Of a stretch of DNA of 64,000 nucleotides, positions 2,056-55,073 are shown in pieces. The DNA lies in contig JAUSIP010000001.1 in assembly GCA_030648005.1 (NCBI GenBank), forward strand, positions 6,662 to 70,661, read 5' to 3'. The position numbers were made by a program, and so were the translations under genes. The notes below the pieces were generated by a model that was not told the DNA's origin, ran no database searches, and saw only the letters and a program-made list of their open reading frames with translations. Each line of letters starts with the position of its first letter. The first letter of the stretch is position 1. Origin of the DNA: a bacterium (GTDB taxonomy: Bacteria > Patescibacteriota > Minisyncoccia > Phycocordibacterales > UBA12445).

Positions 2056-2709
2056 TTATACTATTGGTGACAACAAAATAACTTCTCCTTCTTTCCCCTC
2101 AAGATCTTTCATTTTAATCGTCAACTTATCCAGAGGCGACACGTTCTCTACTCCGGACTCCTTCAAGAAAGATGCGACAGCAGTCTTAGACACGCCGTTG
2201 ATATCGTGCTGCATTGGGATGACAATCTTCGGCTCGAGTAAGTTTACCAGCTTACTAGCATCTGAAGCGTTAAGTAATTCGTCAGCTGGCGAACTGCCGG
2301 TAATCGGCACAAATAGTATATCTATTGCTCCAAGTTCCTCCTTAACTTCTGGTTTTATATCTAGAACATTTAGCGCACCGACGTGACATAAATTTATGTC
2401 ATCAAAAACTACAGAATAAATAGTGTTCATCTTCTTAACTTCATTGATAGTTTGCTCCACCAAGAAACCCTTCACATAAATCCCCCCAGCCTCATACTCA
2501 CCTGGACCGTCTATAACGAAGAGTTCTCGACTCCCGCCGGAGACATTGGAGACACCATTATAGTTCTTGTCATTCATGCTTATAATGGCGATATCAGAAG
2601 AGAATCTGGTTGATTTAAAATCTGAATCCTTAGACACAGGGTTAAAAGCGATGACCACATCGCCCAACTGAACCTTAAAACACCCTATCCCATGATAAGA
2701 AATAACCAT
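2056..2709 (-). CDS. metallo-beta-lactamase-fold metal-dependent hydrolase
   Basis: 217 aa; N-terminal pattern MVISYHGIGCFKVQL...FNP typical of UPF0173/MBL-fold hydrolases. Confidence 0.6.
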   Translation of the reverse strand: MVISYHGIGCFKVQLGDVVIAFNPVSKDSDFKSTRFSSDIAIISMNDKNYNGVSNVSGGSRELFVIDGPGEYEAGGIYVKGFLVEQTINEVKKMNTIYSVVFDDINLCHVGALNVLDIKPEVKEELGAIDILFVPITGSSPADELLNASDASKLVNLLEPKIVIPMQHDINGVSKTAVASFLKESGVENVSPLDKLTIKMKDLEGKEGEVILLSPIV

Positions 2710-3391: not shown

Positions 3392-5389
3392 CTACTTCGT
3401 CTTGAACTCGTACACACCTTCCCAAGTAGCAGGCGGATGTTCGATGAAGTAAAGTGCACGCTCATTAAGTAACCTCGTTGGGCCGTCGTTTAACTTTTTT
3501 AAAATATCTTCTGTAATCTTCTTAACCTCCTGCCAATCGCCGTTGTAATAAAATCTTCGAGCTTTCTCAAAGTCAGACAAGATCCCCTTCACAGCCTCTT
3601 CCTTCTCTCTCTCGACAACTTCGAAGATCGTGACCGGCAATTTCTTACCTTTAACCTTCACTCTATCCAACTCTCTTATCAAGATCTTCTCTTTCTCTAT
3701 CAGTTCGGCCGGCAGATGATCAAAAGTATGCTGGCTAATAATGATATGCACCCCATAAGTCTTAGTCTGGCCTTCAAGACGCGAAGCGAGATTCACAGTA
3801 TCTCCCATCACAGTGTAGTCAAACTGCTGTTCCGAACCCATATTACCAGCAATCACCTTACCTGAATTCAAACCGATACCTATATCAATAGCCGGATCAC
3901 CTTCTGATACACTCTTCTCATTAAACTTTTTTAGCGCAGTCACCATCTCTAGCGAAGTCAGAACTGCATCCACAGCGTGCATTTTATTGGTAAGTGGAGC
4001 ACCCCAGAAGGCCATAATTGCATCGCCGATATACTTGTCTACAACCCCCCGCTTTTTTAGAGCAATGTCAGTCATTACAGTAAGGTACTTATTTAAGAAA
4101 TGTACCAGCTGTCCGGGAGTGAGGCCTTCAGAAAGATTTGTGAATCCGCGAACATCGGAGAAAAATACAGTGGTCTCTTTCTCGTCTCCGCCAAGCTTAA
4201 TCTTAGACGGATCGCGGAGCATCTCTTCCAGAATATCCCTAGAAACATATTTAGAGAAAAGATTACGCAGGTGATTCTTCTCTTTCTCAACAGTAAAATA
4301 ATGATAGGCGAAAGAGACCAATGAGCCGGAGATCCAGGCCAAGTTAATGTGCACAATGTTCGCAACCTGACCCTCGCCAAAAAGGTAGATGATCGCGACA
4401 TTGTAAAAAATACCCAAGACAACATTTACTCCGAGAGCTTTCCATGGCCGTTCACTAAAAGAGAATAGAAGTGCCGGCAATAATGTGGCAAAAAATATCC
4501 AGAACTCAAGCCAGCCCTCACTGATCGGAGCAAGTTTATAATCCTGCAAGATCATGTTTGCGATCTCCGCCTGGATCTCCACTCCACTCATAGCTGTGCC
4601 TCGCGAGAATGGTGTCGGCTTCTCATCATGCAAATCCGCTGCAGTAGAACCTATAAAAATAATTTTGTTTAAGAGTGGTAGATCAATATTTCCTTCATAA
4701 ACTTTCCAGAAAGGCACCATTGGGAATGATCCGGGCGGACCGGCGAATACGATCCGCTCAATACTCTCTTTGGGGTATGAATTTCTATGGCGAAGTCCGG
4801 CCGACTCGACAGTTTTCAATCCTAACGCCTTATTGATCACCGAACTGTCCGCGATCTCTATCCAAAGTGGAACCCTACGCACTACACCATCACGGTCAAG
4901 TATTAGGTTCACATGTGCCGGCGCAGTTAGAGATACATCAGTTATAATTTTCAGATTTTTCACCAGTGGCGCACCTCTCTCTACAAATGCATGCAAGCCG
5001 TCGATATTCACACTGGTAAATTCAACCGGCATTACCAATGGATATTTCAAACCCTCCATAGCCCTCACAAGAGCCCAATCATCTGCCTCTCCTATACGCG
5101 AAGCCTCCGGAAAGATCACATCTAGACCCACAGACTTCGGCTTATACTGCTCCAGATTGGAGAGTGCCTTAGCAAACACAGCTCGAGGCCACGGCCATTG
5201 GCCGATCTTCTGGATAGATTCGTTATCTATACCAATGATAACTATATCTTTATTAATCTCCTTTTTACTGAAGAGAATATCCTCGAAGAACTGCTCTATC
5301 CCCGAGAAAAGTCCGGCACGAAAAGAGCCGACCAGGATTAAGCCGAGAAATGAGTTTAAAAAATAAAAAAATAATTTTTTCCTATTCAT
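3392..5389 (-). CDS. CHASE2 sensor domain / class III adenylate-guanylate cyclase
   Basis: N-terminal CHASE2-like region, TM helices, C-terminal cyclase core FFSDVRGFTNLSE...YIGDAIMAFWGAP. Confidence 0.85.
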   Translation of the reverse strand: MNRKKLFFYFLNSFLGLILVGSFRAGLFSGIEQFFEDILFSKKEINKDIVIIGIDNESIQKIGQWPWPRAVFAKALSNLEQYKPKSVGLDVIFPEASRIGEADDWALVRAMEGLKYPLVMPVEFTSVNIDGLHAFVERGAPLVKNLKIITDVSLTAPAHVNLILDRDGVVRRVPLWIEIADSSVINKALGLKTVESAGLRHRNSYPKESIERIVFAGPPGSFPMVPFWKVYEGNIDLPLLNKIIFIGSTAADLHDEKPTPFSRGTAMSGVEIQAEIANMILQDYKLAPISEGWLEFWIFFATLLPALLFSFSERPWKALGVNVVLGIFYNVAIIYLFGEGQVANIVHINLAWISGSLVSFAYHYFTVEKEKNHLRNLFSKYVSRDILEEMLRDPSKIKLGGDEKETTVFFSDVRGFTNLSEGLTPGQLVHFLNKYLTVMTDIALKKRGVVDKYIGDAIMAFWGAPLTNKMHAVDAVLTSLEMVTALKKFNEKSVSEGDPAIDIGIGLNSGKVIAGNMGSEQQFDYTVMGDTVNLASRLEGQTKTYGVHIIISQHTFDHLPAELIEKEKILIRELDRVKVKGKKLPVTIFEVVEREKEEAVKGILSDFEKARRFYYNGDWQEVKKITEDILKKLNDGPTRLLNERALYFIEHPPATWEGVYEFKTK

Positions 5390-17650: not shown

Positions 17651-17825
17651 GAATTTTCAACTCCTTATCTTCCATAAAAAGTATAACAAAAAAAGCCGAC
17701 TAAGTCAATAGCTGGCTTTTTCTTACGCCCCGAGCCGAGTTTTAAATCCTAACGTGCCAGTAAAGGTAAACTTTGTTGCACTGGTATTTTAAAACTCAGC
17801 TCGAAGCTCGAACTCGGACTATCCA

Positions 17826-17923
17826 CTTAGCGCATAACTTTGTCGAAAGCTCCATTTGCTTCTCAATGTACTGTTAGTACATCTTCGTCGCAAGATTCGC
17901 TTTCTTCGCGTTCTGCATCTAAG
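17826..17923 (-). repeat. conserved ~100-nt 3'-UTR repeat element, copy B (3' of the helicase gene)
   Basis: CTTAGCGCATAACTTTGTCGAAAGCTCC...TGTACTGTTAGTACA...GCGTTCTGCATCTAAG. Confidence 0.8.
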
Positions 17924-17941
17924 TGTCTAAGTCCTTTGTGT

Positions 17942-22527: not shown

Positions 22528-22614
22528 CGGAGGTGGGAGGATTTGAACCTCCGATACCCTTTCGGGTATGCCAGTTTTCGAAACTGGTGATTTCAACCAC
22601 TCACCCACACCTCC
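22528..22614 (-). tRNA. tRNA-Ser (anticodon CGA), type II with long variable arm
   Basis: Hand fold: acceptor GGAGGTG/CACCTCC, anticodon loop TTCGAAA, T-arm GGAGGTTCAAATCCTCC, discriminator G, no encoded CCA. Confidence 0.85.
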
Positions 22615-22685
22615 AAGTTTAAGCGTTTAAATACTAACAGCATTTTGCATTTTTGACAAAATTTAGTATTATAACGAAACCTAAC

Positions 22686-22793
22686 GGCCCTATCGTTCCC
22701 GATTTTATTACGATTTCGTTACAGCGAAATCTCCATAAAATCGAGGATCCTCGACCCTGTGGGGTCGGGACTATCGGTTAGGACACGGCCTTT
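22686..22793 (+). pseudogene. orphan tRNA-Glu 5' half (to the anticodon loop) interrupted in the D-arm by a MITE
   Basis: GGCCCTATCGT + 75-bp element + CTATCGGTTAGGACACGGCCTTT is identical to positions 1-34 of tRNA-Glu at 22931; no 3' half follows. Confidence 0.7.
22697..22771. repeat. miniature inverted-repeat element, copy 2 (TCCCGATTTT...GGGGTCGGGAC)
   Basis: Shares its ends and the internal ATCGAGGATCC core with the copies at 2723 and 53662. Confidence 0.7.
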
Positions 22794-22915
22794 GAGAGGT
22801 GAGGATGGGGTAAGGGGTCCCATCCGCAAGACCTTTTGAGGTAGTTTGCGAGCTAGTGAAGCAAAATATCCAAAAGGTGTACTGCTCCCGTAGGGAGGGA
22901 AACGCAGTGAGGCAT
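22794..22915 (+). ncRNA. conserved structured element X between the orphan 5' half and tRNA-Glu
   Basis: GAGGTGAGG-hairpin-CGCAAGACCTTTTGAG...AATATCCAAAAGGTGTACTG-hairpin. A homolog lies upstream of tRNA-Gly (33021..33122) and shows compensatory hairpin changes. Confidence 0.5.
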
Positions 22916-22930
22916 TTTAAAAAACTATAC

Positions 22931-23002
22931 GGCCCTATCGTCTATCGGTTAGGACACGGCCTTTTCAAGGCTGGAAGCAGAGTTCGACTCTCTGTAGGGT
23001 CA
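22931..23002 (+). tRNA. tRNA-Glu (anticodon TTC)
   Basis: Hand fold: acceptor GGCCCTA/TAGGGTC, anticodon stem CGGCC/GGCTG, loop TTTTCAA, T-arm CAGAGTTCGACTCTCTG. Confidence 0.85.
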
Positions 23003-23139
23003 TTGCGAAGCAAGGAGACTAAGTGAATGAACTGCTTCATTCACGCCAGAGAGTCGAAGCCCGATTGAGATAGTTTATGATTCCGAGTTTATCGAGGAAG
23101 AAATAAAATATCCAATTGGGGTACTGTTCCTGTAAGGAA

Positions 23140-23158
23140 CGACTCTCTGTAGGGTCAT
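23140..23158 (+). repeat. direct orphan copy of the tRNA-Glu 3' end (CGACTCTCTGTAGGGTCAT)
   Basis: 19-nt identity with 22984..23003; preceded by the GGGTACTG-hairpin motif. Confidence 0.8.
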
Positions 23159-23172
23159 CGCGAAATACCACC

Positions 23173-24039
23173 ATGACTCATCAAATACTCTTATATTACA
23201 AATATATAAACATCGAGGACCCGGAAGCGCTGATGGCGTGGCAGAAGAAGCTGTGTGAAGAACTTACTCTAAAGGGTAGAATTATAATCGCCAAAGAGGG
23301 AATCAATGGCACGGTCGAAGGCACTAGAGAGAATACTGAAAGGTATATAGAAGCGATGAAGGCTGATCCCCTCTTTGCTGACGTTCACTGGAAGATAAGT
23401 GCGAGTGACGGATTGGCCTTTCCTAAACTATCTATCAAGGTCCGATCAGAGATAGTGAGCGCACATCTTGATGGCGAAGATGTGAATCCGACAGAAGTTA
23501 CCGGCAGACATTTGAATCCTGAAGAACTTCACGAACTTTTAAAAAGCGGCGAGGAAGTTTATGTCGTCGACATGAGGAATGACTATGAACACAGAGTCGG
23601 GCACTTTAAGAATTCAATACTTCCTCCATTAACCAACTTCCGAGATCTGCCGAAAATAATTCCGGAGCTTGAATATTTGAAAGACAAAAAGGTTGTGACA
23701 GTCTGTACTGGCGGCGTGCGGTGTGAGAAAGCTTCCGGCTATCTAATCAAGAAAGGATTTAAAGATGTCAGTCAGTTGAACGGCGGGATTGTATCGTACA
23801 TGGAGAAGTTCCCTAACCAATATTTCAAAGGTAAATTATATGTCTTTGATGGCCGAGTCACGATGGGCTTCGACACCGATAGTCCAGCACACGAAATAAT
23901 CGGACAATGTGATAAGTGTAATAAGCAAAGTGAGAATTACATAAACTGCAACAACAATCTCTGCCATCGCCATTTCATCTGCTGTGTAAACTGCATAGAA
24001 ACAAGCGGAGCCTTCTGCGGGGATCAGTGCAGAAATTGA
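23173..24039 (+). CDS. trhO: rhodanese-domain tRNA U34 hydroxylase TrhO/YceA (UPF0176) with Cys-rich C-terminus
   Basis: MTHQILLYYKY...AKEGINGTV, rhodanese CTGGVRCE; start at ATG 23173. Confidence 0.8.
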   Translation: MTHQILLYYKYINIEDPEALMAWQKKLCEELTLKGRIIIAKEGINGTVEGTRENTERYIEAMKADPLFADVHWKISASDGLAFPKLSIKVRSEIVSAHLDGEDVNPTEVTGRHLNPEELHELLKSGEEVYVVDMRNDYEHRVGHFKNSILPPLTNFRDLPKIIPELEYLKDKKVVTVCTGGVRCEKASGYLIKKGFKDVSQLNGGIVSYMEKFPNQYFKGKLYVFDGRVTMGFDTDSPAHEIIGQCDKCNKQSENYINCNNNLCHRHFICCVNCIETSGAFCGDQCRN

Positions 24040-24229: not shown

Positions 24230-24249
24230 CAACGAACGAAGTGAGGCGG

Positions 24250-24270
24250 GCACATGCCTGGACTCGAACC
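24250..24270 (+). repeat. inverted copy of the tRNA-Val T-arm/acceptor 3' strand (GCACATGCCTGGACTCGAACC)
   Basis: Reverse complement of 24209..24228 with one mismatch. Confidence 0.8.
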
Positions 24271-24349
24271 TCGAAAGGGGCCGGGAAAACTGTAGTTTTC
24301 CCGTGGAGGAAGGATTGGGAAAACCGTGGGTTTCCCAGTGTGTGAGTAC

Positions 24350-24364
24350 TCCAGGCATGCGCAC
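24350..24364 (+). repeat. direct orphan copy of the tRNA-Val 3' end (TCCAGGCATGCGCAC)
   Basis: 15-nt identity with 24216..24230. Confidence 0.8.
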
Positions 24365-29698: not shown

Positions 29699-29703
29699 AA
29701 AAA

Positions 29704-29725
29704 ATCCCCATAAGGGGATTTTTAC
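29704..29725 (+). terminator. hairpin terminator after tRNA-Phe
   Basis: ATCCCCATAAGGGGAT plus T5. Confidence 0.65.
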
Positions 29726-29943
29726 TTGCCGAGGGAGAACGCCAACTGCTTGGCGTTCGTGCGGATTTGAAAGCCACAGCCATGTCCCATGGGGACAGGC
29801 GAGGCGGGGTCGAGAGTACTTAGTCCGCGCAATTTCGCTTTAGCGAAATGAGCAGACTTAGTAACTCGTGACCTAATCCCCCGAAGCTTGGTAAGGACAA
29901 TTTATTTGGAATTAAAATCGGCATAATTAAACAACCGGTTGTT

Positions 29944-29957
29944 CCCTCGGCACCAAA
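29944..29957 (+). repeat. direct orphan copy of the tRNA-Phe 3' end (CCCTCGGCACCAAA)
   Basis: 14-nt identity with 29685..29698+; preceded by the palindrome AACAACCGGTTGTT. Confidence 0.7.
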
Positions 29958-30596: not shown

Positions 30597-30686
30597 TTCT
30601 GCCCAAGCGGATAGGTTTGGTATATAGGGAATCACAAGAGACTTCATTAATTCAGTTCTAACATCATCCACCAGAGTGCACCAAAC

Positions 30687-30740
30687 AAAAAAAACTCGAA
30701 GTGAGTCTTCCTATACAGGAAGACTCACTTCGAGTTTTTG
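30687..30740. repeat. 45-bp perfect hairpin repeat, copy 1 (19-bp stem ACTCGAAGTGAGTCTTCCT)
   Basis: Near-identical copy at 44118..44170; flanked by A/T runs, so it can act as a bidirectional terminator. Confidence 0.8.
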
Positions 30741-31055: not shown

Positions 31056-31654
31056 TAATTATATAATAACAAAAAAAGACCCCGGGGACAATCCCGGGGC
31101 CACAACCTCGCATGCTTAGCTAGCTACTCCTTTGACTACTTCGACCTCAGCCTTTTTTCTGCTCGATGCTCTCTTGCCACCAGATAAGATACCGGCACCA
31201 AGTACAAAACCGAAGTTATACCAACCACCATTGTTATGAACCTCATACAGACACACATCACTCGAGAAAAGCGAAATGATCCATGTGATCGGCGCGATTA
31301 TTCCGTGCTACAGACCGAGCCAGAACCCAGCAATATTTCCGTCCGAAGCTGGAACATTCACCGTAGTATTTGGACCGGGGGTACAACCAGTCAGAAGCAG
31401 TACCCCACCCAAGAACAATAGACCGAGCAAGTGTGTTTTCCTCATTGTTCCATCCTTCGAGTTAGAAACGTACACGATCTAGAGAATAGAGTATCATTTA
31501 TATTAAATAAGTCAATAACAAGGAATCTCGCCCTACGGGCGCTGGTACTTTTCGCTCCGATATCCATCGGAGAACGAAAAGTCTTTCGATTCCCCGGCGC
31601 AGGCAAAGCAGTTTGCCTGCTCGGGAGCACAAAAAACCGCTCCGCTCTTGTTTG

Positions 31655-32823: not shown

Positions 32824-32939
32824 AATACTTCCTCCTTGAACTAGTAACGCAATCTATGTTTTCAAACCCTCTCTAGTTTTGCATATTATAGTGTAAAAGT
32901 CAATAGCTGAAAAAACCTTGTATTCTCTAACTACTTTTG

Positions 32940-33010
32940 TGCGGCCAGGGAGAATCGAACCCCCATCTAATGCTTGGGAAGCACTCATTTTACCACTAAA
33001 CTATGGCCGC
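32940..33010 (-). tRNA. tRNA-Gly (anticodon CCC)
   Basis: Hand fold: acceptor GCGGCCA/TGGCCGC, loop TTCCCAA, T-arm GGGGGTTCGATTCTCCC. Confidence 0.8.
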
Positions 33011-33020
33011 TTTTCTAAAT

Positions 33021-33156
33021 TAAATCTCATCCTTACAGGATCTGTACACCTTTTGGATATATTCTCGCACAAACTCAAATATATCTCAAAAGGTCTTGCG
33101 GCGCTAAGCGCGCCTCACCTCAGGAAGGTCGCATCCTACCACTGAACTATACCCGC
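33021..33156 (-). ncRNA. orphan tRNA 5' half (GCGGGTATAGTTCAGTGGTAGGATGCGACCTTCC) fused to conserved structured element X, immediately upstream of tRNA-Gly
   Basis: Minus-strand sequence TGAGGTGAGG-GGCGCGCTTAGCGCC-GCAAGACCTTTTGAG...AATATATCCAAAAGGTGTACAG-ATCCTGTAAGGAT is homologous to 22794..22915. Confidence 0.55.
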
Positions 33157-33502: not shown

Positions 33503-33705
33503 ATATTTCTTCCACCTTTTCTTTTCTTGTAAATCTCTCACCAACGTATTATAGTATATGGATAATATACCCACAATGTTATTTCACAAAGAAAACAAAA
33601 AGAAGATAAATCTGCTCTGGAGTATTATGTGTGTACTCCTAGCGATCAGTATGGTACTGCTCTACATCCCAGCCTTCTACCAGTAAAACCTATATACTTA
33701 GCGCA

Positions 33706-33792
33706 TAACTTTGTCGGAGACTGCGTTTATTCCTCACTGTACTATTTGTACAGTTTCGTCATAAGCCTCGCCTCCTTCGCGTTCTGCATCTA
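33706..33792 (-). repeat. conserved ~100-nt 3'-UTR repeat element, copy C (3' of lepA)
   Basis: CTTAGCGCATAACTTTGTCGGAGAC...TGTACTATTTGTACA...GCGTTCTGCATCTAAG. Confidence 0.8.
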
Positions 33793-33820
33793 AGTCTATC
33801 AGTTTTAGAATTTTGGGATT

Positions 33821-43918: not shown

Positions 43919-44117
43919 GGTGTATCCTCCTTATCAATGAACCCAGCCCATCCACACCAAAACTACCACATTAGTATGTGGCTGTCTATTGATGAAATTT
44001 ATACGGAAGAAAAAACTATTTCTTTGCCTTCTTCGGCTTCTTCTTCTCCTTTCTATGTCCGTCTCCTTTTGCCATATCTAAATTATAACATCACTCCTCC
44101 CAAAACTTATCCACAGT

Positions 44118-44170
44118 AAAAACTCGAAGTGAGTCTTCCTATATAGGAAGACTCACTTCGAGTTTTTTTA
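44118..44170. repeat. 45-bp perfect hairpin repeat, copy 2
   Basis: Identical 19-bp stem to copy 1; loop ATATA; followed by T7. Confidence 0.8.
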
Positions 44171-53359: not shown

Positions 53360-53545
53360 CTAGTTTTTCCAATGGAGTACAATCTCAAAATAAAGGAAGA
53401 GTGCCCCGGTGACTGCCCAAGATAGGATCTCGAAGATTATCGGCTTGAAATTTATTTTATGCAGGGTCATTGCGAGTGATCCGAAAACAACTATCAGCAC
53501 GGCGAGTAATACAATCAACTCTTTCTGTGTTTCTATCACGCTCAA
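53360..53545 (-). CDS. hypothetical small membrane protein
   Basis: 61 aa, two TM helices. Confidence 0.35.
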   Translation of the reverse strand: MSVIETQKELIVLLAVLIVVFGSLAMTLHKINFKPIIFEILSWAVTGALFLYFEIVLHWKN

Positions 53546-53661
53546 CCTCTCCTTTTGGAATTTCTAAACTAACCTTACCAAATATTTATATATTATAAAA
53601 GACCCCCATCTTTTGCTTTTTTAGTAATAATTTGATATATTTTACTTCATATTCCTCGGTA

Positions 53662-53708
53662 GTCCCGATTCGATTCATCGAATCGAGGATCCCGACAGGG
53701 GTCGGGAC
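53662..53708. repeat. miniature inverted-repeat element, copy 3, inserted in an orphan tRNA-Asn 5' fragment
   Basis: GTCCCGATTCGATTCATCGAATCGAGGATCCCGACAGGGGTCGGGAC, flanked by TCCTCGGTA and TCAGTGGTTTAGTTGTTAAC (tRNA-Asn positions 1-9 and roughly 12-38). Confidence 0.75.
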
Positions 53709-53735
53709 TCAGTGGTTTAGTTGTTAACTTAATAT

Positions 53736-53810
53736 TCCTCGGTAGCTCAGTGGTAGAGCAGCTCGCTGTTAACGAGTTGGTCGTAGGTTCGAATCCTACC
53801 CGGGGAGCCA
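53736..53810 (+). tRNA. tRNA-Asn (anticodon GTT), CCA encoded
   Basis: Hand fold: acceptor TCCTCGG/CCGGGGA, loop CTGTTAA, T-arm GTAGGTTCGAATCCTAC. Confidence 0.85.
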
Positions 53811-53948
53811 AGTGAGCGAAGCGAACGCTCCACGAGCAAGCAAACTGCTTTGCTTGCGTGGTAGGATTCGAAAAGGTTCTCCGTTATCCGATGGCAATCG
53901 GATCGGAAACCTGTACCGTTCATGTAATGAAAGAATCCTTCTAAAAAA

Positions 53949-54570: not shown

Positions 54571-54972
54571 ATGCAAAATAAAACAACTCACGAATCATTT
54601 GTTTTAAGACAATCCACACTTCCAAGTGCAGGAATCGGAGTGATTACCTTACACGACATAGCCAAGGGTACATATATGGAGCTTTTTCGTGATGGTTTTG
54701 AGGAGGAAATTAGGGATGAGTCTGATGTGCCGAAGCCACTCAGGGCATACTGTCTCTATCAGGGTAATGGCAAGATCTTATGTCCAAAAATGTTCAATCG
54801 TATGGATATCGGAAATTATCTCAATCACTCAGAGAACTGGAATATGGTCTATGAAAAAGGCAGGGGTTACTTTGCTTCTCGAGATATTAGAGCCGGAGAG
54901 GAACTCTTTGCCAACTATAGAGATCTGGGAGAGCCCGAAGACCAGAGAGAGGAGTATTACAAGGTGCATTAA
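54571..54972 (+). CDS. SET-domain protein (putative lysine methyltransferase)
   Basis: NHSENWN and GEELFANY motifs. Confidence 0.6.
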   Translation: MQNKTTHESFVLRQSTLPSAGIGVITLHDIAKGTYMELFRDGFEEEIRDESDVPKPLRAYCLYQGNGKILCPKMFNRMDIGNYLNHSENWNMVYEKGRGYFASRDIRAGEELFANYRDLGEPEDQREEYYKVH

Positions 54973-55043
54973 TACTTTGACCTTCAGCATTTCTTGGAGC
55001 AGAGCGAGTACGATGCGAAAGGTGTACTGTTCCCGTAATGAAA

Positions 55044-55061
55044 GAATCCTACCCGGGGAGC
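55044..55061 (+). repeat. direct orphan copy of the tRNA-Asn 3' end (GAATCCTACCCGGGGAGC)
   Basis: 18-nt identity with 53791..53808; preceded by the GGTGTACTG-hairpin motif. Confidence 0.8.
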
Positions 55062-55073
55062 AAAAATAAAATA

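Follow-up and report, generated by a model that had tools for sequence, protein, structure and literature searches.

Small structured non-coding elements around a tRNA-Glu gene of a Patescibacteriota bacterium belong to a family that recurs, together with displaced gene segments, at tRNA genes and other genes

The locus described here is that of a transfer RNA gene, tRNA-Glu(TTC), in a Patescibacteriota bacterium (GTDB lineage Bacteria; Patescibacteriota; Minisyncoccia; Phycocordibacterales; UBA12445). It lies within a stretch of 64,000 nucleotides (nt) of GenBank assembly GCA_030648005.1 (contig JAUSIP010000001.1, positions 6,662 to 70,661 of the forward strand), which is referred to below as the window and is numbered from its first letter. 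The locus was shown to consist of three insertions around one working tRNA-Glu gene: an upstream element (E), a downstream element (F), and a 74-nt sequence of the miniature inverted-repeat transposable element (MITE) type within a displaced 5' copy of the gene (Table 1). E and F were shown to be copies of one family of non-coding elements of about 100–140 nt. Every E or F copy is flanked by a direct repeat of that part of the gene which extends from the insertion point to the nearer gene end, and an intact gene is always kept beside the displaced fragment. In the F order, the gene end (x) is followed by a loop, often a terminator-like hairpin, then by antisense x, the structured module and x again, while the E order runs from the leader and 5' part of the gene through the element and a spacer to the intact gene.

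The displaced pieces had been noticed in a first-pass annotation made from the letters alone, and seven of the eight items listed there hold. The exact copy of tRNA-Glu nt 1–34 is indeed present, interrupted after nt 11 by an element of 74, not 75 nt, and the conserved element reported behind it has a homologue upstream of tRNA-Gly. The intact tRNA gene was recovered by both ARAGORN and Rfam. The 19-nt direct copy of its 3' end is exact as described, and extends further to a point 8 nt before the start codon of trhO. In a significance check the orphan pieces stood up well, as neither displaced repeat (the 5' 23-mer or the 3' copy) found a match in 100 dinucleotide-preserving shuffles of the window. 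The leader of the displaced 5' copy (22677–22685) resembles the sequence ahead of the working gene (22922–22941 versus 22677–22696, 85%). The 5' junction is ambiguous: the copy is exact to nt 34, nt 35–38 differ and nt 39–40 (GG) match again, and the junction may accordingly be placed at 34/35 or at 40/41. Homologous junctions at two comparison loci, L086 and L009, read ...GG/TGAG (the slash marks the junction). Within F, the predicted hairpin at 23024–23043 extends from 8 to 9 base pairs (bp) (23023–23044), and the inverted T-arm copy proved to be complementary to 22983–22994 at 12 of 12 positions. In the F fold, a stem formed by 23047–23056 and 23140–23149 encloses hairpins P1 and H2. The mechanically derived open reading frame (ORF) of trhO (23116–23172 region) begins at a TTG within F, the database protein begins at ATG 23173, and no obvious ribosome-binding site was seen where F adjoins this start.

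The E and F spacers share sequence (22858–22896 and 23100–23138 are 79% identical) and the same order of parts. This order opens with a variable hairpin; a long hairpin built on ACCTT/AAGGT comes next, and GTAC separates the latter from a final 5-bp hairpin whose loop is GTA. The motif GGGTACTG and the hairpin ending at 23139, both previously reported, are part of F. The only item that had to be replaced was a "degenerate MITE-like segment", since 23060–23120 corresponds to the module's long hairpin. Its unfamiliar appearance is due to the fact that the F hairpin at tRNA-Glu is built from CCCGATTG/CAATTGGG where other copies have ACCTTTTG/CAAAAGGT, a version with compensatory changes. A scan with the exact pattern AAGGTRTACNGNNCCYGTARGG, one genome per species, yielded at least 120 stretches, compared with about 35 expected by chance according to our own estimate. 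The two outer pairs of the short hairpin, which were left free in the search pattern, are paired in 98% of cases with four Watson–Crick types each, versus 68% and 43% in shuffles, and RNAalifold gives the same short hairpin. Over the 13 specified pairs, pairing holds in 92.9% of the cells (79.7% in shuffles), and double changes were seen at 12 of these pairs. The observed pairing values were reached in none of 500 shuffles, and sliding the partner columns drops pairing to 33–57%. Single copies fold with z-scores of -3.5 to -5.8, and 17% of the copies, versus 0.5% of the shuffles, have a stem of at least 7 bp between their two flanks. The covariation means that the sequence acts as a folded single strand. 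G–U pairs are rare in the module stems, which fits DNA better than RNA but is not decisive. As a covarying module of three hairpins, the inserts themselves are the conserved unit, not the remnants of a larger element. A small additional hairpin, GYGTACTCRC, with GTAC in its loop, was seen just after H2, inside the displaced T-loop copy, in many F elements, at L025, L036, L041, L070, L087, L095 and L112. The trailer TTGCGAAGC is the complement of GCTTCGCAA, which closes H1 in many E copies.

A local tandem duplication of tRNA-Glu followed by decay, with the shared motifs being coincidental or ordinary terminators, was also considered, as the three tRNA-derived pieces are spaced 171 and 155 nt apart in a manner resembling a tandem array. 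However, members of the same family as the spacers occur at other genes and in over 100 further genomes. In addition, the antisense copy is inverted instead of direct, and the stems covary. Thus, this explanation is highly improbable.

A covariance model built from 120 copies, with all six window copies included in its training alignment, recovered these six, each beside a tRNA gene, and nothing else in the window. The suggestion that the tiny inserts share motifs with other tRNA loci was borne out, as five other tRNA genes of the window show the same architecture, and so do more than 100 other genomes. Downstream of tRNA-Asn, tRNA-Arg, tRNA-Val and tRNA-Phe, an antisense copy of the acceptor 3' strand may come first. 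Then follow a hairpin (its loop is often AACTGCTT), the antisense of the T-loop and of the 3' strand of the T-stem, and an inner structured module, and the series closes with a direct repeat of the tRNA 3' portion from the T-loop onwards. The hairpin with the AACTGCTT loop recurs downstream of tRNA-Asn, tRNA-Arg and tRNA-Phe, and the same inner module (ACCTT/AAGGT hairpin, GTAC, GTA-loop hairpin) is found at tRNA-Glu, tRNA-Asn and tRNA-Arg. Upstream of tRNA-Gly(CCC), the E motif is preceded by a tRNA-Gly-like 5' half and the string CGCAAGACCTTTTGAG, and this arrangement has an ortholog in L086. The two modules of tRNA-Asn are separated by two ordinary ORFs, coding for HAD-like and SET domain proteins. 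A second inner module, termed G type (GCGAGGCGGG, GTCGCG-hairpin-TGTGACC), was noted in the same slot at 29780–29880 of the window, at about 2900–3010 of L009, and in L101, L031, L011, L005 and L056; the ACCTT/AAGGT module is often nested inside it.

Table 1. Positions of the tRNA-Glu locus components and of related arrangements in the window (nt numbers within tRNA genes refer to the working copy)
Feature	Position	Strand	Basis or remark
Promoter-like site (TTTGCA, 17 nt, TATTAT)	22644..22672	+	sole such site upstream of the locus; 14 nt before displaced 5' copy
Displaced copy of tRNA-Glu nt 1-11	22686..22696	+	repeat comparison; exact
74-nt inverted-repeat element, in D-stem of displaced copy	22697..22770	+	ends TCCCGA/TCGGGA; two hairpins
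Displaced copy of tRNA-Glu nt 12-34	22771..22793	+	exact
Upstream element E	22794..22899	+	covariance model 75.6 bits; fold z = -3.5; covariation
E, TGAG-type left end		+	
E, hairpin H1	22803-22825	+	
E, CGCAAGAC		+	
E, long hairpin P1	22831-22878	+	
E, GTAC	22879-22882	+	
E, hairpin H2	22885-22897	+	CTCCC-GTA-GGGAG
Spacer between E and working gene	22900..22930	+	last 9 nt like ancestral leader
Working tRNA-Glu(TTC)	22931..23002	+	ARAGORN and Rfam (51.8 bits); CCA not encoded
Downstream element F	23003..23139	+	covariance model 61 bits; fold z = -5.7
F, trailer		+	
F, hairpin H1	23023-23044	+	loop AACTGCTT
F, antisense of tRNA nt 54-65	23047-23058	+	
F, long hairpin P1	23060-23120	+	
F, GTAC	23121-23124	+	
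F, hairpin H2	23127-23139	+	TTCCT-GTA-AGGAA
Displaced copy of tRNA-Glu nt 56-73 plus 7 nt trailer	23140..23164	+	25 nt, one mismatch; 23140-23158 exact
tRNA-Val, downstream, same architecture, different inner module	24231..24364	+	antisense 24253-24268; 3' copy 24350-24364; by eye
tRNA-Phe, downstream, G-type inner module	29699..29955	+	by eye
tRNA-Phe, antisense acceptor	29728-29735	+	
tRNA-Phe, hairpin H1	29738-29757	+	
tRNA-Phe, antisense T-arm	29761-29771	+	
tRNA-Phe, 3' copy	29944-29955	+	
F element downstream of tRNA-Arg(CCT)	31522..31653	-	30.7 bits; antisense acceptor and T-arm pieces, module, truncated 3' copy AGATTCCT
tRNA-Gly(CCC), tRNA-Gly-like 5' half	33156..33123	-	
tRNA-Gly(CCC), element E	33116..33027	-	71.9 bits
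tRNA-Gly(CCC), working tRNA	33010..32939	-	
F element downstream of tRNA-Asn	53811..53939	+	49 bits; z = -5.8; truncated 3' copy GAATCCT
Second module and full tRNA-Asn 3' copy	54954..55064	+	35.4 bits; 3' copy 55044-55064; 1.25 kb downstream of gene

The trhO product of the window is identical to a protein from a metagenome-assembled genome, and its relatives are from Patescibacteria. In the relative L002, where TrhO is 80% identical, an uninterrupted tRNA-Glu gene directly follows TTGACAAAATTTAGTATTATAACG, i.e., the gene stands behind the same promoter-like sequence. In the window, TTGACAAAATTTAGTATTATAACG precedes the displaced 5' copy and overlaps the sole promoter-like site of the locus. 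Because the same sequence precedes the uninterrupted gene of L002, the displaced 5' copy marks the ancestral gene start, and all that lies between it and the working gene has been inserted. Of the trhO neighbourhoods compared for synteny, only that of L002 has kept tRNA-Glu nearby, and this empty-site comparison is one of the 5' side, as the downstream flank differs. Transcription of the working gene probably starts at the ancestral promoter and runs through the displaced copy, the 74-nt element and E, after which the tRNA would be released by normal tRNA processing. At tRNA-Val, F-type elements with different inner modules are present in the window and in L003, and none is found in L001, while the E arrangement of tRNA-Gly is common to the window and L086, a locus from the same assembly as L001. 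Thus, presence and absence of the elements differ between relatives.

The following counts refer to the matches listed. The titled records among them belong to lineages of the candidate phyla radiation (CPR) or are unclassified, with one exception; the lineages are Paceibacterota, Saccharibacteria, Parcubacteria, Nomura-, Kaiser-, Zambryski-, Lloyd- and Taylorbacteria, and Minisyncoccia. The exception, L013 (JBLHGD010000063.1), is a 4.8-kb contig in a metagenome-assembled genome named Candidatus Azotimanducaceae, and may be a binning contaminant. Several genomes harbor two or three matches. The F arrangement accounts for 38 of 123 copies, in which a same-strand tRNA (15 amino-acid specificities in all) ends 75–263 nt (mostly 75–140 nt) upstream of the motif, and the E arrangement for approximately 12 of 123, with a same-strand tRNA starting 29–136 nt downstream. 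In 30 of the 38 F loci, the antisense piece, which adjoins the module, matches nt 54–65 of the working tRNA at 11–12 of 12 positions. In most of the 38, the displaced copy begins about 19 nt from the tRNA 3' end, i.e., at nt 55/56, inside the T-loop. The E junctions are scattered among the D-loop, nt 23–27, nt 34–41 and, once, the T-loop.

The F formula likewise recurs at two protein genes identified by Pfam, namely at the final codons of rplK (three genomes) and at ftsZ, where the repeat is 35 nt long. As judged by eye, it is probably also present at the end of the elongation factor G gene (fusA) in L008 and L098. Tandem arrays were observed in L022, L047, L074, L077 and L114; in the rplK array of L074, the x copy directly preceding each antisense piece is the one that it matches, as would be expected of successive integrations. 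Larger, cargo-bearing versions are represented by the tRNA-Asn locus of the window (1.25 kb) and by L021 (1.5 kb). Nearly all copies point in the same direction as the gene beside them. In a few loci (L052, about 4590–4800; L094; L122) the working tRNA is on the strand opposite to the module, and in L052 the module is reversed in an F-like arrangement; orientation is therefore strongly biased, not fixed.

This co-orientation, by which the copies would be transcribed together with their genes, agrees with the idea of a structured RNA that is useful to the host, i.e., one that has a 3'-end processing, stabilizing, terminating or regulatory role on highly expressed genes (tRNAs, rplK, fusA, ftsZ) and was duplicated and selected. 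The strong covariation and the terminator-like hairpin often found in the loop point the same way, as does the uneven decay at the F loci, where the antisense pieces are 91% complementary to the working tRNA and the displaced copies have fallen to 70–78% identity. The latter gap may be due to selection on the antisense piece. Alternatively, newer insertions may have repeatedly replaced the element's left part, with modules recombining afterwards. On the other hand, elements that come and go among close relatives are not needed by them, and nested insertions, tandem arrays and insertions in dead tRNA copies have the look of selfish DNA. A displaced gene fragment is not required alongside a useful RNA, and no Rfam family was matched. 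Such a role is considered quite unlikely.

One E copy, in L014, is flanked by a 26-nt direct repeat and located directly upstream of a group I intron. That intron (2158–2422, minus strand; Rfam, 60.2 bits) was seen without a recognisable tRNA around it. Patescibacteria are rich in tRNA group I introns (PMC13011429). Spread through RNA was also weighed, with an intron-like or retro-element RNA pairing with the target via its antisense segment and becoming fixed by reverse transcription and recombination. A segment complementary to the target does adjoin the structured core, and the insertion points fall in loops of structured RNAs (D-loop, anticodon arm, T-loop). Nevertheless, no interrupted gene was seen that would give a complete tRNA on removal of the element, as the intact copy is always adjacent. 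The antisense acceptor piece of tRNA-Arg, the sole case checked, has no complement of CCA, and was therefore copied from the gene and not from mature tRNA. Moreover, the duplications take in leader and trailer DNA, no intron in Rfam matches the elements, and no reverse transcriptase was seen nearby, which makes RNA-mediated spread improbable. The search with Rfam 15 detected only tRNAs at gathering thresholds plus one group I intron, and nothing at the elements; at E-values of up to 10, region 22600–23250 gave, besides the tRNA, only sub-threshold matches at chance level. The group I model (RF00028) matched neither this region nor any of 18 loci, and the same tool detects the true intron of L014. 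A group I intron remnant was rejected as well: there is no Rfam match, the elements are far too short and the interrupted copies are incomplete. No published description of the element family was found in the literature searched, and both the family and its structured motif, which is absent from Rfam, are apparently undescribed.

The first-pass annotation had read the flanking orphan pieces as the footprint of site-specific integration, similar to the attL and attR attachment sites, and this reading is partly supported. Direct repeats of tRNA segments bound the insert, one intact tRNA stays between the displaced 5' and 3' pieces, the F order fits a single site-specific crossover, and L002 provides the empty site. 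As opposed to the proposal, the 3' junction lies in the T-loop (nt 55/56) and not at the 3' end of the gene, the antisense copy is not needed by att sites, the inserts form a conserved unit, the ends of rplK and ftsZ serve as targets too, and a simple one-sided att exchange does not account for the displaced tRNA-Gly half. No integrase or other recombinase was found in E, F, the cargo ORFs or the neighbourhoods of 120 loci. The related view that the elements are scars of integrase-mediated islands or prophages, left as att-flanking stubs by internal deletions, draws on the same classical features, i.e., direct tRNA-segment repeats, T-loop junctions, tandem arrays and cargo-bearing intermediates. 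However, one and the same covarying 90-nt module, at a tight spacing of about 75–140 nt from the tRNA, would not be expected at over 100 loci after random deletion. No integrase was found in the cargo-bearing versions or around the 120 loci, an antisense copy of the target is no part of ordinary att sites, and no copy was found in phage and plasmid collections. Two patterns run against 2.9 million viral contigs yielded no copy of the module and a single chance match inside an ORF, BLAST against phage and plasmid records returned matches to the tRNA part only, and metagenome scans for strain variants of the tRNA-Glu locus found none. Deletion scars are thus an unlikely source of the family.

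Taken together, the pattern is that of site-specific insertion with restoration of the gene. The reading we prefer, which we regard as evenly poised between right and wrong, is that E and F are miniature, non-autonomous, gene-end-restoring insertion elements. According to this model, the elements would insert site-specifically into conserved segments of essential genes, each carrying a replacement copy of the gene segment that it displaces, with an enzyme acting in trans. An F-type element would consist of x, loop, antisense x and module, and a single crossover with the chromosomal x (located between flanks A and B) would give A, x, loop, antisense x, module, x, B, which is the F order. Both the upstream x and antisense x would then be element-derived, in agreement with the array of L074, and regeneration of the target would make tandem arrays possible. 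Pairing of x with antisense x could produce a stem with the module at its tip, resembling a folded single-stranded recombination site. A folded single strand is favoured because the antisense copy is nearly universal and well preserved, while a double-stranded circle with an ordinary integrase gives the same order without any use for it.

A number of observations weigh against this model. No recombinase, transposase or reverse transcriptase was found in the cargo, and none recurs near the 120 loci, where the ORFs were clustered and judged by eye from cluster representatives, and only housekeeping families recur. E and F themselves have no coding capacity, and the cargo ORFs of tRNA-Asn and L021 contain no mobility or recombinase domain. 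Viral and metagenome scans revealed no free, circular or junction form, and no phage or plasmid copy was found. Covariation does not distinguish RNA from single-stranded DNA. E-type copies have no antisense copy of the target, and the folded-stem model therefore covers the F type only. The displaced 5' half of tRNA-Gly (acceptor GCGGGTA) cannot pair with the 3' strand of the working gene (TGGCCGC), and a one-sided exchange therefore does not explain that locus. At L005, L056 and L073, the element lies inside a decayed tRNA copy that resumes after it without duplication at the junction, hence simple insertion into an already dead copy also occurs. Finally, the model does not explain how one conserved module gains new pairs of x and antisense x for many targets.

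A further-reaching version of the preferred model, in our opinion doubtful though worth stating, is that the elements are a protein-less structured mobile family of many CPR lineages, parasitic on conserved termini in essential genes (the tRNA T-loop and the 3' ends of rplK, ftsZ and fusA). Each copy would bring a substitute for the gene segment it displaces together with the antisense of that segment. This would be a family in which the target-matched stem and a two-hairpin module form the recombination substrate, with a host enzyme providing re-programmable targeting set by base pairing. If true, this would represent a new class of guide- or structure-directed integration. Should the target-matched stem direct insertion, the system would amount to a minimal, protein-free, sequence-programmed integration into essential genes, and would offer a handle on recombination activity in genetically difficult organisms. 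The copies are numerous for tiny genomes (six in 64 kb here); the element reshapes tRNA loci, leaves tRNA fragments that can confuse annotation and carries small gene cargo beside tRNAs. Even on the most ordinary reading, a widespread structured motif missing from Rfam is added.

The 74-nt element with TCCCGA/TCGGGA ends (fold z = -5.2) is lineage-specific, MITE-like and separate from E and F. Three copies are present in the window (22697–22770, 53663–53707 and, on the minus strand, approximately 2726–2781), and none was detected at 124 other loci examined. Two of them are inserted in the D-stems of displaced tRNA copies, i.e., after nt 11 of tRNA-Glu and after nt 10 of tRNA-Asn. Only this element combines terminal inverted repeats, small size, absence of an ORF and several copies. 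No target duplication is visible at the three insertion sites, and a short fixed one is also missing from E and F, which carry long gene-derived repeats instead. The minus-strand copy directly precedes a TATAAT-like -10 box and an ORF start, and may affect the promoter beside it. Upstream of tRNA-Asn (53641–53735), a displaced leader with nt 1–10 (22 nt, 91% identical to 53724–53745) is followed by the 45-nt copy of this element and a few D-arm bases, and the E module is absent; displaced 5' copies can therefore occur without a module.

Several further repeats were noted in the window. The string GCAGGGTCATTGCGAG at 53452–53476 is similar to the tRNA-Glu 3' end with a TTGCGA trailer and lies distant from tRNA-Glu, possibly as another displaced fragment. 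Positions 17819–17932 and 33690–33803 form an intergenic 114-nt direct repeat (79% identical) with the hairpin CTGTAC-AAATA-GTACAG, seemingly a further family of small repeats. Two copies (30685–30739 and 44113–44167; 95% identical) of a near-perfect palindrome of 55 nt, AAAAACTCGAAGTGAGTCTTCC...GGAAGACTCACTTCGAGTTTTT, look like a mobile bidirectional terminator.

Among known systems, the islands and prophages that integrate at tRNA genes by means of tyrosine integrases, said to have been described by Williams in 2002, reportedly leave attL/attR repeats and use sublocations in the anticodon loop and T-loop. CIMEs (cis-mobilizable elements) are integrase-less derivatives of such tRNA-integrating elements, and the deletion-scar view discussed above would make E and F CIME-like remnants. 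E and F resemble the islands in the direct repeat that extends from the crossover to the tRNA 3' end and slightly past it, in the restoration of the gene by the element-side copy, in the T-loop junction, and in tandem arrays and the cargo genes of some copies. They differ from them in their length of about 100–140 nt with no integrase found near, in the covarying three-hairpin core, in the antisense copy of the target, in the 5'-side variant and in the use of protein-gene 3' ends as targets.

As mobile sequences, E and F share with MITEs and REPINs their small size, non-coding nature, multiple copies, hairpin formation, frequent position at gene 3' ends, nesting and presumable mobilization in trans, and the inverted ends and copy number of the 74-nt element (22697–22770) place it in this class. 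E and F, in contrast, have neither fixed terminal inverted repeats nor a target duplication of short, fixed length; the outer stem derives from the target, and 19–50 nt or more of gene sequence are repeated at the flanks.

Group I introns occur in tRNA genes of Patescibacteria (Nakagawa et al. 2026, PMC13011429), and this was the nearest paper found. The phylum, the kind of host gene and, for the E type, insertion in the anticodon arm are the same. Unlike these introns, E and F have no Rfam match and are far shorter, and their removal does not reconstitute the gene.

Folded single-stranded recombination sites are known from CTXphi attP(+) and other Xer-exploiting elements, and from integron attC. 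Similar to these, F-type copies, and only these, have inverted target-like arms about 60–120 nt apart (about 80 nt at tRNA-Glu) able to form a stem that mimics the target. Also alike are the order after integration (x, element, antisense x, spacer, x), the conservation of structure over stem sequence and the regeneration of the target. One fixed site (dif or attI) is used there, whereas here the stem takes its sequence from the particular gene that the copy has targeted. Elements that carry a guide include IS608 with its guide tetranucleotide, group II introns with pairing of exon- and intron-binding sites (EBS/IBS), and IS110 with its bridge RNA. The segment found here comprises at least 12 nt, stands beside a duplicated copy of the target and has no associated protein, and its guide role is putative; in common with all three systems, it is an internal segment that is complementary to the flanking target and varies with it.

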